Shown in pieces: positions 11,066-59,763 of a stretch of 64,000 bases of DNA. Positions within the stretch are counted from its first letter, which is position 1. Every line of letters begins with the position of its first letter. Origin of the DNA: Octopus vulgaris (taxonomy: Eukaryota); assembly GCA_951406725.2 (NCBI GenBank), contig OX597816.1:145824001-145888000 (forward strand), read 5' to 3'. The notes beneath the pieces are model-generated. The model saw nothing but the letters and a program-made list of their open reading frames with translations, did not search any database and had not been told where the DNA came from. The translations under genes and the position numbers were made by a program.

Positions 11066-11399
11066 TATTTAAAAGGTTATTTTACATGTATTAAAACGCT
11101 GCTATTAATTTCCTACATTGAGAAAACTCAAACTTATTCTTCAAGCGCAGACCACCTATCATAACGAACTGAATAAATTAAAGAATAGAAGAAACGCCAA
11201 AAAACTGAGAAGGCAGGGCAGCATGAAGAAAACAAACAATGAACAAGGGAAAAGGAAAAACAGTAACTAAAAAGTAAAAAAAAAAAGAAAGTAAAAAGGT
11301 AAAGAACTCTCTTTAAAAGACAAGGCTGGAAAATTATCAACTGAGTCAGGAATAGCCAGAATTTTCTAATTCTTCAAAATATAATTTATATATATATGC

Positions 11400-12927
11400 T
11401 TGCTACCACTGAATATTTCTGACCTGGAGTTCTTTAGGGAGTTAGGAATCTTAAATCTGAACAGCATCTACGCCCTTTCAGTCAAACAAAGTCTATATTT
11501 ATTCGATCCATTCAAATAAGGTATGTATTTACCAATTACTTTCCATTCAATCCCACGCGGTATTTTGTTATCTTTCGCAGTCCATACGTAGCTAGCCAAC
11601 GTAGTAGCTTTACTTATGTCCTTATGTCTGAAGGAGGCTACGTGATTGTTATAGCGATTTTTAAATTCATCTTCACATAATCCAATGTAGATCTTATCAG
11701 TTGCATTATTATTTAGGATTGCAGTACCTTCTGTCTCATTTATGATAGGTTTAGTCATACGTCGTTGGTCTCGCAACAGTTGCAACTAGATTCAGGCTCT
11801 TGGTATTGACCACCTGTAATGATACTCTTCATATTTAGGCAGCAGCTATACGATAATTTCCCAGGACGCCTATTAAATATTTTCCTATATTTGTGAGTGT
11901 CTTCAAATTTTTTGTCTAGAAGAGACAGGAATCTTTTACCAATGTTAATTTTTATATTGAGTGAAATGTGATCGCGAACCAAATAATTTTCCTTGGCCTA
12001 TTTTAAAATTGCTTATTATCCTGATTAGTACAAGAGTGGTTATGTACTACTTTATCTTTGATGCCACTAGATCTATTATTGATATTTTGATTATTATTAA
12101 CGGGATTATATATTAAATTAACTTTGAAGCCGCTATTGGCTTGGGCTTTGTTATAATAGGGGCAGTTTCGCGAAAATTTCTTTGGAAGAAGAGAGGTTAG
12201 ACACTCTGTTACTAATATTAACTACCATGTTTTTAAATATTACAGGAGGGTGACAAGATTATTGATGCATAAGTTTCGCTTATGCAAAGACTTATGCAAA
12301 GGTTTATACGAGGAGGAGTCGAATTCTAGGGAAACGCATAAATAATCAACTATAGAGACGTTAGTAGCTACTGTAATTTTAAGTACTAATTGATTAAACG
12401 TAGAAATTAGTTGCTTCCTATGTGTATCAAGAAAATATCCAAACCGTCGCCACGATATAGGCCAATGTCATGAGATGGGTATCTATATTATAATGTGTTT
12501 AGTATAAACAATCCCACAAGATCACAGACGTCAGCACTATCATATGACACTATAGATGCATCAAATATTTCATCACTGTGTGACTTTTGTTTTTACCTAT
12601 GCAAATCCATTATTGAACAATAGTGTTTTCGTCGCATGTCTGATAAAATCTAGGTCTATTGGGTCAAAATCAGCATATGATTTAACTAAGTCAATAGCTT
12701 TATTAAGCAGTGATCTAGAAATAGAGGGATAAATGTCTATAATATCAAACTGGGTAACTTTACACTTATTCTTATGTTTGATGTTATTAAATCAATCTGT
12801 TACAGTAAAACTGTTATTCTATTGTTGAAACCCAGCAATTTCCCCAACTCTATGATTAATATTTGTAAGTATTGTTTTAGCTTCTAGCCCAATTTCAGGT
12901 CACGCTGAGTTTAACAATCTACAAGAT
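11400..12927 (-). mobile_element. Degenerate Penelope-like element, RT plus C-terminal GIY-YIG (YRDDG-type RT)
   Basis: QFDIIDIYPSI, SYDSADVCDLVGLFILNTL, IGLYRGDGL, IGKRFLSLLDKKF...LSYSCCLNMKSII, SCNC, IYIGLCEDEFKNRYNNHVASF. Confidence 0.9.
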
Positions 12928-13430
12928 TGGTAAAAGATTCCTGTCACTCTTAGACAAACATTTCCAGCAACTTACAGATACAGGAAGATATTCAATCGGC
13001 GTTCTGTCCCAATATGAAGAGTATCATTACACGCGGTCCATAGCAAGAGCTTGAATCCAGTTGCAACTGTCATGACACAGGATCTTGTCAACGTGACCAA
13101 TGATGTATTACTAAATCAAACATATATGAGGCAGACGTTTGTGCAACACTAAATAATAATACAATTGATACGATTTATATTGCCTTATGTGAAAGCGAAT
13201 TTAAAAATCTCTATGCTAATCCCATAGCCTCCTTCAGACATAGGGACAAAAGTGAAGCTACTAAGTTGGTTAGCTACGTATGGACCTTGAAAGATAAGGA
13301 AACACCGGATGTTATTAATGGGAAAGTAATGGAGAAATCCATACCTTATGTGAATGGATCGAATAAATGTAGAATTTGTTTGGCTGAAAGAGCGTAGGTC
13401 CTGCAGAGATCTAAGATCCTTAATTTTCTA
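12927..13430 (+). mobile_element. Inverted copy of the same PLE's GIY-YIG region
   Basis: Diverged reverse complement of about 11445-11945 (IGKRFLSLLDKHF; IYIALCESEFKN; SYVWTLKDK). Confidence 0.85.
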
Positions 13431-33784: not shown

Positions 33785-33799
33785 ATATATATATATATA

Positions 33800-34039
33800 C
33801 TTTATTTTAAGCAGCAGAAAATTCAACAAAATCTGTTACTCTGAGTTTCTCGTTGCCGTTCATCAGACAGTTTTTACTAGAATTCTAGCAAAAACTGTCT
33901 GATGAACGGCAACGAGAAACTCAGAGTAACAGATTTTGTTGAATTTTCTGCTGCTTAAAATAAAGCATATTACTCTACCACTGGTATTTGAGTACTCTTT
34001 TTTCCACCTTGTTTCACATTTATGTGTTTACTCCGGTCT

Positions 34040-34040
<1 letters not shown>
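33800..34040 (+). mobile_element. Fold-back PLE pseudo-LTR remnant embedded in (TA)n
   Basis: 166-bp palindrome 33800-33965 plus a tail of about 75 bp, with (TA)n on both sides. Contains a hammerhead. Confidence 0.75.
33895..33932 (+). ncRNA. Minimal type I hammerhead ribozyme (mirror copy on the minus strand at 33833-33870)
   Basis: Stem I ctgt/acag. CTGATGA 33899-33905. Stem II cg-gcaa-cg with an A-A first pair. GAAA 33916-33919. Self-complementary stem III actcagagt. GTA triplet 33926-33928. Confidence 0.7.
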
Positions 34041-39660: not shown

Positions 39661-40757
39661 AGGAAAGCCGTTCATGTTAACGTCGACATGTGTATAAATA
39701 AGTAACGTTTTTACCAGTAAAATGCATACGTACATTTTCAGTAATACGTACATAGTTTTCATTGCCAAGTAGATTGGGTATAATTAAACTTATATATCTT
39801 AGTATTGACAATATAGATATCTAATTATTTTTTAATTTTGTTAAAATAAATTATTTTTTCTGTTGCCTGTATTTTCGAGCTTTCAAAGTTTTTTTTACCT
39901 CAGCGTTACAATTGTAATTGACGGCAGGATTTGATTTGTCTTTTCAAGGAATTTGATACTAATTTCTTCCATTCAGTAGCAATATATTCTGTGCTGTTAA
40001 CGTTATCAAACGTAAGCAGGGCCAATATGTATTTTCTGAATTCTACCGTCTATGTGTTCATTTACTTGTGCATATGCTTTTATGATTATATGTATTTGTT
40101 CACAAACCGGCAATATTGTTAGATTTGTCACCTGCAATATCTTCCATGTAACCCGTTTTTGTCTTGCCACACTTAGCTACATTAAGAAGAATAACAGGTT
40201 GAATATCATGAAGTTATACGTAATTTTCAGAGGAGGACCGACGGGAATGACAGCGCTTCAGAAATAATAATTTCACTCCACTTACGCCATACATAATTTC
40301 TGTATTAACCTGCAAACAGTTTAATTTATCTAAGTAAATTTGAAGAAAACACCATGTTGAAATATAGGATTTGCAATGTACCGGTCCTTTGGTGATGGAA
40401 TAATGTCCTGCATTCTTGAGATATACATTGAAACAAGTATTCAAAGCTGGTGTCACGTTCAACAATAAGTATATATAATGATAGATTGATTTAAGCTACA
40501 AGAAACAGAATATCTCCAGAATGACATTAAGCATTGAATTGTATTAAATCACTAAAGAAATACCAGCAAACAAACTAAACGAACAAACCAAGCATCTTAC
40601 AATATACATTGTATAATATATAGTTTAATATGCGCTCTTCGATCTGGCATAAGTTCAAACATTTGATATGCCTCACAAATGAATGTATAATGCGTCGATA
40701 TTGATGTACAGGTTCACACAAACACATCAACACACGCACATATAGATTATGTATATA

Positions 40758-40891
<134 letters not shown>

Positions 40892-40932
40892 TTGTATGTA
40901 CGAATGTATGCATATATATATATATATATATA

Positions 40933-42037
40933 TATAATGATAAGAGTAAATAATTTCTATAAAGGCTTTTAAAAAAACCCCAATTATTTACTGGTAGAAT
41001 TCGGTATGTAAATATAGCCGATTACCGGCAGGAGCTTCTGTAAAGTTCAGTATATATATTGTATATAAGAAAAAGGGACAGGCAAAACAGGTTGCTTGAC
41101 CGCATACCGAAAAAATAGAAATAGCAGTCAAGAATGCTTATTTCTATCAAAGTTGGACTCCGGGCATGACAGACCCTGTAATTCACATATGCAAAACAGA
41201 AGGAATAGATAACGAATACGAAGTCTGGCGGTTATCTGTGAACATCATGTTTCTGGATTATAAACATATTGAATATATATTCCATATATTTTTGATATAT
41301 ATTTCATATATATTGCATATATATTTCACATCCTTCTTCAGCACAGCTTTCCATTGAAAAAGATTTATCATAGATTTATCAAATGCTACGTACCTCTTTT
41401 GCCTGTCCCTTTTTCTTATATACAATATATATACTGAACTTTACAGAAGCTCCTGCCGGTAATCGGCTATATTTACATACCGAATTCTACCAGTAAATAA
41501 TTGGGGTTTTTTTAAAAGCCTTTATAGAAATTATTTACTCTTATCATTATATTACTATTTGGATTTTTCACTCCCTTTGACAACCTAACTGTAATGCGCA
41601 TGGCAAAATTTTGGAGGGAAGATTTATGAATTCAAACGTCTATGTAGGTTTAGCCTTTGCTCACTTTCTTCAAATAGTTTGATGTCGCATGGTCAGAAGG
41701 TTTGAGGTACGTAGCATTTGATAAATCTATGATAAATATTTTTCAATGGAAAGCTGTGCTGAAGAAGGATGTGAAATATATATGCAATATATATGAAATA
41801 TATATCAAAAATATATGGAATATATATTCAATATGTTTATAATCCAGAAACATGATGTTCACAGATAACCGCCAGACTTCGTATTCGTTATCTATTCCTT
41901 CTGTTTTGCATATGTGAATTACAGGGTCTGTCATGCCCGGAGTCCAACTTTGATAGAAATAAGCATTCTTGACTGCTATTTCTATTTTTTCGGTATGCGG
42001 TCAAGCAACCTGTTTTGCCTGTCCCTTTTTCTTATAT

Positions 42038-42050
<13 letters not shown>
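40933..42050. mobile_element. Non-coding element with nested, near-perfect inverted duplications in (TA)n (PLE pseudo-LTR-like)
   Basis: 40933-41087 is the reverse complement of 41397-41550. About 41052-41396 is the reverse complement of 41704-42050. This explains the twin ORFs at 41166 and 41743. Confidence 0.75.
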
Positions 42051-42061
<11 letters not shown>

Positions 42062-42072
<11 letters not shown>

Positions 42073-42281
42073 GGGCTCAGTAAAATAATTAACTTTGCCA
42101 CATACTGAAATTTTTAGAAATAGCAGCCAAATTTCAGTATGTGGCAAAGTAAATTGTTTTACTGAGCCCTTAATTATATAAAGTAATATTTTGAATACGC
42201 CTTGAATGGTCCTTTTACATACTGAACACTACTTGGTGAAATTAATTAATAACTAATTGATTTTACCCTAAATTATTGATA

Positions 42282-42285
<4 letters not shown>
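42062..42285 (+). mobile_element. Second fold-back element in (TA)n: 52-bp arms, 15-nt loop, tail of about 105 bp
   Basis: Arms 42062-42113 and 42129-42180 with two mismatches. Confidence 0.7.
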
Positions 42286-42326
<41 letters not shown>

Positions 42327-42857
42327 TAAGCATATATATATATATAGAGAGAGAGAGAGCTTATATATATATATAAACTCTGTCAATATTTCTTTCGTAT
42401 TTCAAGCTGTAAATATTTGTTCAAACGAGGTGCATATATCGCATCATATTCTAGTGTATGTTGCCATCATCGTGGCAGAAGCTGAATTCCACGATTATAC
42501 TATTTGGTTGGCTTAAACCCCCCACCCCCCAAAAAAAATTACCTGTACCTCATCAACATTATTGACCCTCCGTCCATGTAGGAAATGAGCTGTGACAAGG
42601 AAAAGGTGGTAATCTGATGATGGTCGTCTGGACTTTAGGCAGTCTAAGTCAGTACTTCTTTGACCCAAAGGTTACTCGAGCTTGCCCTTGGTCAATATGG
42701 CTGTGTGTACGAGGGCATTGACATGCAGTAAGCGTGTGCGTCTTCGATTGAACAATGCTGGGTAGCGGGTCTTCAAATTATCATATGCTCAATTTAGTTT
42801 TTGAGAAAAGGGTAGCATTAACAGCATGACTATTTTGGACGAGTTCAACAGACGGAC

Positions 42858-42897
<40 letters not shown>

Positions 42898-43070
42898 ACA
42901 CACACACATATACTCATATATACCTAATATAATAAATGCTAAAAATCTAATTTCTGTGTGTCAGTGTAACACACGTTGATCCCCTCTCTCACTATACAAT
43001 GACATTCCTAGTATTCCTCATGATGGTGTGAGAGTAATAGTAGGCATAGATATGGTGAGGGTGGTGGCGA

Positions 43071-57994: not shown

Positions 57995-59722
57995 TTATCT
58001 TGTTACGGATTATTAAACCGTTGCTAAAAGTGTTATTGGCACTCTCTACATTAATGACTCGGACAGTGCTCTCTGGGTATTATGCCACTGTTAACTCACA
58101 CAAAGTTAGGATACCCTTCTCCAACACTAAGAATCTCTCACAGATAATTTCATCCCATAACAATAAGCTGCTAAATAAGGCCCTCTCACCAGAATAACGC
58201 GCAGTAATAATAATAATAATAATGATAATAGAACCGGCACAGAGATTAGCAATCTCCATACCAGCCATGGAGTTAATAATAGGAATAAGGATAGGAGCAA
58301 TGGTGACGACACTAGCGTTAGTAATGGTAATGGGGATGAGAGCACTGTCCGAGTCATTAATGTAGAGAGTCCCAATAACACTTTTAGCAACGGTTTTGAC
58401 AACAGTAGCATCACGGACATTAGCAATCACAGCGATCTCAGTGCCAGGGAATATACAGGTGATATTCCATTAAATAGTATTGATAATGGGGTGTATAATG
58501 TCGAAGACAGCCGCAGTTCTCGCAATCATCATAGTAATAAGAACGCCGTATTAATATCTGAAGCCAATCCCAATAGAATAAGGTTCTTATCTAGTAATTC
58601 CAAGATTAGAAATGCCATTTACCAATGCAGAGTTTCTACTGAATCAGATGTCTACTTGTATATCGGAGCGTCATCATCAAAATTGGCCGTGAGAATATCG
58701 AACCACTTCACAACATTTCGCGATTTTAGAAAACAACACGTGACCGGACTAAGTAAATTGATCTGGCGTTTGAAGAACGCGAATTCAGCATTTAGACTGG
58801 AATGGTCGATTTTTATCGGTGTCTGTACCGTTTGATAGAGGCAAAAGAATCTGTAATCTCTGCAACTCTGAACTTTTTCACATTTTGTTCGCCCGAGGGC
58901 GGCTAGTTAACGCGATTTTGCAAAACTCTTTCAGATGTCCCCATTGGAGGCGGCACACATTTCTTGCATACAATTGAAGCCTAAGATAATTAACACCTTG
59001 ATGTCCTAAGAAAGGAAAAAAATTTTGGAAAAAATTTTGAAAAAAAATTTTGAATTAAATTTGTAAAGGGAAATTACTCCCCTTTTAGCGTATGATCTGC
59101 TACTTATTTAGAAACAATATCAGGGATTATACTCCCCTTGTTTAACAAGTCATCGGTGTATAAATTGACCACAGACGAACACACAGACACAGGCTTTTAT
59201 CAGCCGCTTGACCTACAATATCTGCAATATATTTTCCCACTAACTGCTTCCTAACATACTGCCACACATACACAGGCGCACACACACATACATGTAAGTA
59301 GTTTCTCACACCCAAATAAGATAGCTTTCATTCTTAAAACAATTCGAACATTAACATTAGTTATACAGAATATATTCACACTCTTTGGTTTTCTTGAATT
59401 CTTCCCCTACCAAATTTAACCGCAGTTTGACCTCGATTTGTTCCAACGGACTTTTTCGTCGGCCTTCACACACCCTGACGTCAACGCACATTGAGAGACA
59501 GTTTTGTGCCTTACCATGGGCTCCTAGGGAGCGTTTTGTTCGAATAGCTTGCTGCGCATTTGTTTTGGAGATTTATATTCCTGGTTTTTCCTGAAGAGAA
59601 AGCTACAAAATGGTCTCCTTATTCAATCCGAATCTGGAAATTTGCAGCCTTTGAAACATGTGTAGAAAATAATAAAAAGGAAGTTTGTAGAATCTTCGTT
59701 CAGCTCCATTTCTTCCCTTCAC

Positions 59723-59725
<3 letters not shown>
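57995..59725 (+). mobile_element. Penelope-like element 3' portion (Asn/Ser/Asp-rich linker, GIY-YIG, 3' UTR with hammerhead) between (TA)n tracts, with a short 5' inversion
   Basis: SNTKNLSQIISSHNNKLL, NAIYQCRV..YLYIGASS..RISNHFTTF..TGLSKLIWRLK, ICNLCNSE, CPHWRRH. 58015-58074 is the reverse complement of 58338-58397. Confidence 0.85.
59586..59669 (+). ncRNA. Type I hammerhead ribozyme with extended stem II
   Basis: Stem I ttttc/gaaaa. CTGAAGA 59591-59597. Stem II gaaagctacaaa/tttgcagccttt with two A-C mismatches. GAAA 59653-59656. Palindromic acatgt in stem III. GTA triplet 59662-59664. Confidence 0.75.

Positions 59726-59763
<38 letters not shown>

Follow-up and report, generated by a model that had tools for sequence, protein, structure and literature searches.

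Penelope-like reverse transcriptases (RTs) are the closest relatives of the telomerase RT, and how they choose an RNA template and the internal sites at which copying starts is the question raised by the locus described here. For the single active protein of a Penelope-like element (PLE) that has been studied in vitro, start sites were obtained but no conserved RNA signal (PMC11167929). The locus lies in a window of 64,000 nucleotides from Octopus vulgaris (contig OX597816.1, positions 145,824,001 to 145,888,000), in which two neighbouring elements embedded in (TA)n had been noticed to share a bipartite module. This module makes up only the front of a larger predicted RNA fold, which is strand-specific. 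In the reading that we favour, with a probability of about two in three, the fold is a conserved one carried by hammerhead-bearing retrozymes and would be a docking site that sets two start points for reverse transcription; the 'RT-recognition signal' suggested in the preliminary description agrees with it.

Two protein-free elements in a (TA)n tract

Judged by their sequence, both elements are retrozyme units of Penelope-like type, non-autonomous, inserted in (TA)n and about 560-620 bp long, and each is made of two back-to-back arms (Table 1). The arms of element 1 overlap by 5 nt, with inverted stretches at 40932-41092/41392-41552 and 41051-41396/41704-42049; its right arm starts inside hairpin P3, continues through the tail and a further unit and ends, tailless, at start site 1. 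A fold-back had been described as beginning right at the 5' edge of the module in both elements. This holds for element 2 but not for element 1, whose minus arm reaches 41396, 269 nt beyond the module, and whose plus arm starts at 41392. Nor do the elements have little else in common, as had been thought, since both are members of a single superfamily in which the fold is shared and a hammerhead lies upstream. Protein-free units of three subfamilies, with periods of 565, 559 and 618 bp, occur single, in tandem or inverted, G-class units measure about 400-490 bp, and no PLE protein match was found inside the units. Contigs of four sequencing runs, presumably of RNA, cover the stretch; neither strand nor ends are visible in them.

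Table 1. Positions in the window of the arms, modules, helices and hammerheads of elements 1 and 2.
Feature	Position	Strand	Remarks
(TA)n target	40740..40936; 42033-42067; 42285-42346		left; between elements; right
Element 1, left arm	40937..41396	-	start site 2 (tailed end) in (TA)n; hammerhead, module and tail within
Element 1, right arm	41392..42049	+	658 nt, exceeds one 618-nt unit
Element 1, module	41969-42004	+	string check
Element 1, module, minus copy	41096-41131	-	string check
Element 1, hammerhead	41754..41864	+	canonical type I; predicted cut after 41859, 113 nt upstream of module
Element 1, hammerhead of left arm	41236..41346	-	same hammerhead; predicted cut after 41241
Element 1, P1 hairpin	41953..41984	+	upstream box ATAGAAATA pairs with TATTTCTA; encloses CTGCT box; minus copy 41116-41147
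Element 1, P2 domain	41000..41111	-	P2 5' strand 41103-41111; P2 3' strand 41000-41008
Element 1, P3	41074-41101	-	CU, then AU-rich site-1 patch behind hairpin
Element 1, P5	41017-41029	-	within P2 domain
Element 1, P6 hairpin	40943..40991	-	CU directly behind; site 2 about 6 nt further
Element 2, left arm	42068..42131	-	short inverted copy, ends at site 1; CTGCT box, P2 5' strand, P3 (42072-42099)
Element 2, module	42094-42130	-	string check
Element 2, right arm	42128..42283	+	ends at site 2 in (TA)n
Element 2, right-arm helices	P2 5' 42133-42141; P3 42143-42170; P5 42199-42210; P2 3' 42218-42226; P6 42235-42269	+	

The strings by which the module had been defined were all found in place in the window, including the distal box pairs TTCGGTATG/CATACCGAA of element 1, with a spacing of 94 nt, and TTCAGTATG/CATACTGAA of element 2, with a spacing of 76 nt. 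When the pattern CTGCTATTTCTA-N3-6-TTCRGTAT was searched in the 2.8-Gb genome of the octopus itself, 4,964 + 4,948 (9,912) matches were obtained, compared to 1 + 0 for the reversed control in the same genome, a difference that is not due to chance. Three narrow patterns alone gave 9,912, 2,747 and 477 matches; the covariance model was run on sampled loci, so that copy numbers are minimum values.

Single-sequence folding of 23 extracted module rows, a few of them mis-cut, and of 28 representatives gave one recurring layout, in which a P1 hairpin (AGAAAUA with UAUUUCU) is followed by a long-range helix, P2, that closes P3, P4 and P5, and then by P6, although not every minimum-energy structure displays the full P1-P6 layout. 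The upstream box of P1, ATAGAAATA, had been overlooked before, and TATTTCTA is read on the hammerhead strand. One representative (G7, L075) folded unlike the others and was left out, leaving 27. A covariance model of class F also recovered far-diverged classes, G1-G6, in flanking DNA.

Inserted copies end in two places

Copies end in two regions, each just 3' of a stem followed by CU, at P3 (site 1) and at P6 (site 2). A C(C)U stands directly 3' of P3 in 24 of the 27 representatives and 3' of P6 in 20 of them, and the base of either stem runs into an AU-rich stretch, where the ends fall. Arms end in these two regions in 38/42 cases among F2-like copies (sister subfamilies included) and in 9/10 in the element-1 family. 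Tailed ends lie 0-22 nt past the CCCU of P6 (32 ends), whereas site 1 is 2-39 nt wide; in G3 and G5 it likewise falls at 12-22 nt (4 copies) and 9-19 nt (17 copies). The stretch between the two start points corresponds to the 'tail' of PLEs, here about 100-120 nt long. Fold-back mapping by extension or local alignment was unreliable, and from it the end classes, gaps and hammerhead distances were retained; antisense passenger copies in family A2, which inflate the list of site-1 ends, were left out of the end statistics.

The two kinds of end are paired in a regular manner. One tailless and one tailed end were present in 18 of 21 two-armed F insertions; two others were scored as having two tailless ends and one was ambiguous, and two tailed ends occurred in 0/21. 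Locus L131 does have two tailless ends, and L130 had been mis-scored owing to a mutated tail. Two of the five two-armed G5 loci had been mis-scored as well, with mutated tails and ends 109 and 114 nt after P3, and after correction 4/5 fit one end of each kind. The 5' ends, on the other hand, are scattered, and none of ten element-1-family arms stops at the module edge or at the hammerhead cut. Arms longer than one unit were found in 6/10 cases in the element-1 family and in 9/42 among F2-like copies, from which the template would have been multimeric or circular.

The breadth of site 1 implies that microhomology of AU-rich sequence alone may explain part of these ends. The fold could then serve the life of the RNA, through circle stability, ligation, export or quieting of the hammerhead, with the ends arising only from AU-rich patches that anneal to nicked (TA)n. 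That both end regions are AU-rich would agree with this, as would the circles of metazoan retrozymes, which are highly self-paired and whose hammerheads are thought to be blocked in vivo (PMC7229834). Other AU-rich stretches exist in the units, yet nearly all arms end in these two regions, the same stem and CU stand ahead of both, and the pairing of one end of each kind needs coordination. We therefore consider this explanation rather unlikely.

A covarying long-range helix on the hammerhead strand

P2, which is formed by the two distal boxes of the preliminary description, spans 82-118 nt across classes. Its sequence differs among the seven classes (F, G1-G6), and in 396 of 420 cross-class comparisons a strand preferred its own partner. 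For P2, P3 and P5 together, three of five measures (cells paired, double changes and covariation score) were above 500/500 shuffles in 19 rows of F families, which are related, and the other two were not above shuffles. The long-range pairing proposed between the boxes thus reflects real covariation over many families.

The stem that had been described as closing the module is an alternative hairpin, incompatible with P2 and P3. It pairs in 98% of cells, but its supposed covariation did not exceed that of shuffled alignments (182/500, against 0/500 for P2/P3 in three of the five measures), and its CTGCT box is absent from 5/26 representatives, and from G3 and G4. The stem is a possible alternative state of the RNA. 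A two-state switch could be built on it, in which the CUGCU box would pair with the 5' strand of P2 until the tail is made and would then be displaced by P2, an exchange that would control either cleavage by the hammerhead or which start site is used. In class F, RNAalifold gives the CUGCU-box hairpin as the consensus, all one-sided changes in this hairpin keep pairing, and related hairpins fold in G1, G2b, G5 and G6. Against these stand the lack of excess covariation, the classes without the box, and weak energies, from -1.8 to -8.9 kcal/mol, with a z of 0.03 for element 2, so that such a switch seems unlikely.

Wobble pairs in P2 were counted as 15 G-U and 1 A-C among 243 cells of the 27 representatives, and as 17 G-U and 3 A-C among 450 cells of 50 tailed copies. 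At one P3 pair of class G5, counted by eye among the 100 matches listed of 477, C-G was found 44 times, U-A 32, U-G 24 and C-A 0. This asymmetry on the hammerhead strand argues against an inverted repeat of DNA, and the earlier suggestion of a strand-specific, cis-acting RNA structure of Penelope-like elements holds. A point against the covariation is that the central G-C/A-U change of class F falls on CpG in both strands. Folding energy of the whole fold favoured the sense strand modestly, in 20/28 representatives (mean z -3.7 vs -3.0); for the right arm of element 2 it was -36.0 kcal/mol (z -6.7) in sense and -26.2 kcal/mol (z -2.5) in antisense.

According to work cited in PMC11167929, recognition of plasmid DNA by the Penelope endonuclease depended on the tail, and the structure might accordingly act as DNA, as a cruciform or single-stranded intermediate for the GIY-YIG endonuclease, or be the inverted repeat of a MITE. 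Both are quite improbable given the confinement of wobbles to the hammerhead strand (15:1, 17:3 and 24:0) and the 5'-truncated, tandem ends, which have no terminal inverted repeats of fixed length. Identity as a MITE was rejected on the same asymmetry and on the variable 5' truncation, with no strand-symmetric terminal inverted repeats.

Many of the P2 wobbles in F6, F8, F11, F13 and F16 stem from A-to-G changes; besides selection, editing of the template RNA could account for them. A pseudoknot between the 5' strands of P5 and P6, judged by eye, was discarded, since both hairpins show local pairing in every class.

A hammerhead upstream of the module

The hammerhead motif of element 1 (stem I CUGUG/CACAG, core CUGAAGA, GAAAC...GUU), for which cleavage is predicted, has a long stem II made of an 11-bp tandem repeat. 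The copy in element 2 stops short of the hammerhead, and its close relative L077 has one 126 nt upstream. In the units the motif lies 80-150 nt upstream of the module. When scored by a descriptor, which covers the motif only and whose misses include truncated arms such as element 2, it was found upstream in five of the six module classes counted (F, 28/73 copies; G3, 10/21; G1, 2/5; G4, 2/3; G5, 1/3; G6, 0/1), with a background of 22/1,030 random windows. The sequence of stem I varies among families, with the pairing kept. Because element 1 and the close relative of element 2 carry canonical type I hammerheads, the module is not the substitute for one that it had been proposed to be.

A new self-cleaving ribozyme in place of the hammerhead, also put forward in the preliminary description, is very improbable and nothing points to it, for although the compact multi-helix fold, the conserved CUGCUAUUU box, the tandem R-A pairs in P3 and the lack of an Rfam family at gathering score would suit one, a canonical hammerhead is already present, only the CU and a U-rich linker are unpaired and conserved across classes, and the 5' ends of the element-1 family do not pile up in the module.

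The module itself was rejected as a hammerhead, as it lacks the CUGANGA and GAAA cores. The 3' strand of P2 reads CUGAAC, CCGAAU, CUGGCC or CUAGAC depending on the class, with no conserved GAAA in the G classes, and a re-wired hammerhead was discarded by eye on core strands that vary across classes. An Rfam scan (twister, pistol, HDV-like and others) gave only sub-threshold matches to miRNA-type hairpins; the scan was weak and also missed the hammerheads of the window. ARAGORN found 0 tRNA genes in 40000-43000. Hammerhead cores of UUGAUGA or CCGAUGA/CCGAAGA instead of CUGANGA, with intact stems, were seen at L129:1112-1212 (G1) and in L194-L198 (A4).

Relation to retrozymes and Penelope-like elements

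The units share with non-LTR retrozymes a type I hammerhead motif, the lack of coding capacity and a tandem arrangement. Like the retrozymes of metazoans, they are protein-free and AT-rich, with one type I hammerhead per unit, and occur in tandem and dispersed (PMC7229834; bioRxiv 10.64898/2026.07.22.740005). They differ in size: retrozyme monomers measure about 170-400 nt (tandem repeats of 150-450 bp), compared to about 400-620 bp for the octopus units and 559-618 bp for the class in the window. They also differ from described retrozymes in their insertion into (TA)n, their inverted arms and their two fixed ends. Mobilisation of metazoan non-LTR retrozymes by PLEs has been proposed (Cervera and de la Pena 2020, PMC7229834; Li, Clavereau and Pollet 2026). 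In the available text of PMC7229834 and bioRxiv 10.64898/2026.07.22.740005 no start-site fold is described, and the word 'octopus' is absent from their main texts; no published description of the P2-P6 fold was found in a search of openly accessible papers.

In their insertions, the units follow the pattern of EN+ PLEs, with partial tandems, an adjoining inverted 5'-truncated copy and a tail at one end (PMC8557442). Hydra-clade PLEs likewise target (TA)n, carry canonical hammerheads and have tandem and inverted arms with a tail (Craig et al. 2021, PMC8557442). Naiad PLEs are alike in their (TA)n targeting, inverted arms and tail, but lack canonical hammerheads (PMC8557442), and identity with Naiads was rejected on the hammerhead that is present here. 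In the supplement of the same report, the 3' end of a bivalve Naiad (the record before Naiad_Mphi) holds, by eye, a GACTGCTATTT box and closes with a GGTAAT/ATTACC hairpin plus CT that resembles P6 of the octopus units.

The anole Poseidon element PAc is alike in that its protein cleaves and extends both strands of an AT-rich target and starts internally at two sites, downstream of the hammerhead, that bracket the tail (Frangieh et al. 2024, PMC11167929). Its tail has 30-40 nt and lies inside the ORF, with both sites in one AC-rich stem-loop (PMC11167929), whereas the octopus units have a non-coding tail of about 100-120 nt and two separate arms of stem and CU, joined by the covarying long-range helix.

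A route by which the units may be copied

From the ends, their pairing rule, the fold and the hammerhead motif, which are what the sequence offers, we infer a course of transcription, cleavage, circularisation, binding and priming. The repeat would be transcribed, and hammerhead cleavage would then release monomers, which may form circles. A borrowed RT-endonuclease, probably dimeric and probably from the Hydra clade, would dock on both arms of stem and CU, which P2 would keep together for it. The enzyme would nick both strands of the (TA)n tract, either DNA 3' end would pair with one of the AU-rich patches, and microhomology would bring the two cDNAs together head to head, 5' to 5'. Docking of this kind would offer a concrete route for copying animal retrozymes back into genomes. 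Since non-autonomous passengers keep what the enzyme needs, a fold kept through large sequence turnover, together with two mapped ends, amounts to a ready set of mutations.

More tentatively, the fold might be a two-armed scaffold that positions primers, in which P2 holds two look-alike arms of stem, CU and template so that one RNA, probably circular, serves an RT dimer as the starting point of both cDNAs. Such a scaffold would be portable, serving for recognition throughout a large superfamily of retrozymes and perhaps in the ends of Naiads, and would account for why Penelope-like elements have a tail and inverted arms. The arrangement recalls telomerase RNA, which sets a short template beside a stem.

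Candidate autonomous partners

Protein queries were taken from the GIY-YIG domain (two), the Hydra N-terminus (two) and the endonuclease and RT of Naiad, and 150 candidates were scored for each. Four Hydra-type families (A1-A4), two families that we take to be Neptune-type, and remnants of Naiads were obtained. Each of A1-A4 is active and carries the Hydra-clade RT motif GLYRDD. The fold was not found as the own end of any of these sampled PLEs, and the covariance model detected no module in the terminal repeats of the six active families. The ends of Hydra-type A1 and A4 have in common with the units only the stem and CU before site 1, with no P2. The Naiad remnants match published octopus Naiads; the link to Naiads drawn in the preliminary description was not sustained, as their matches are short and broken and the model finds no module at their 3' ends.

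In the sampled genome, 0/132 module copies formed, in sense orientation, the terminal repeat of an adjoining PLE ORF. Ten of these copies have PLE neighbours, of which eight are set apart by a microsatellite, L119 is a separate insertion and L266 remains. By analogy of hammerhead style and (TA)n targeting, the enzyme partner is probably of the Hydra clade.

Other PLE sequences were noted in the course of this search. A young autonomous family, A3, has as its end the hammerhead fold-back at 33795-34040 (core 33899-33928). Intact open frames of 727 aa are numerous in this family, from which the sense strand can be identified as the strand carrying the tail 3'. Positions 58179-59730 hold the 3' part of a Hydra-type PLE of family A1, full copies of which have about 900 aa; a hammerhead with a long stem II lies at 59591-59664. 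This copy ends at the tailless site, and the tail of the family is about 150 nt. Old broken Hydra-type fragments, one of them an inverted pair, lie at 11381-13403 and 149-1216 of the window, where frames resembling a Neptune-type ORF were also seen by eye. The two young Neptune-type families (L236-L242 and L256-L261) have frames of 784 and 753 aa and non-standard, hammerhead-like ends. In A2 (L081-L115), an active PLE of 718 aa, 28/30 loci contain an antisense, short two-armed copy of a module element; this passenger sits in a microsatellite-rich 3' UTR of several kb and is spread by A2.
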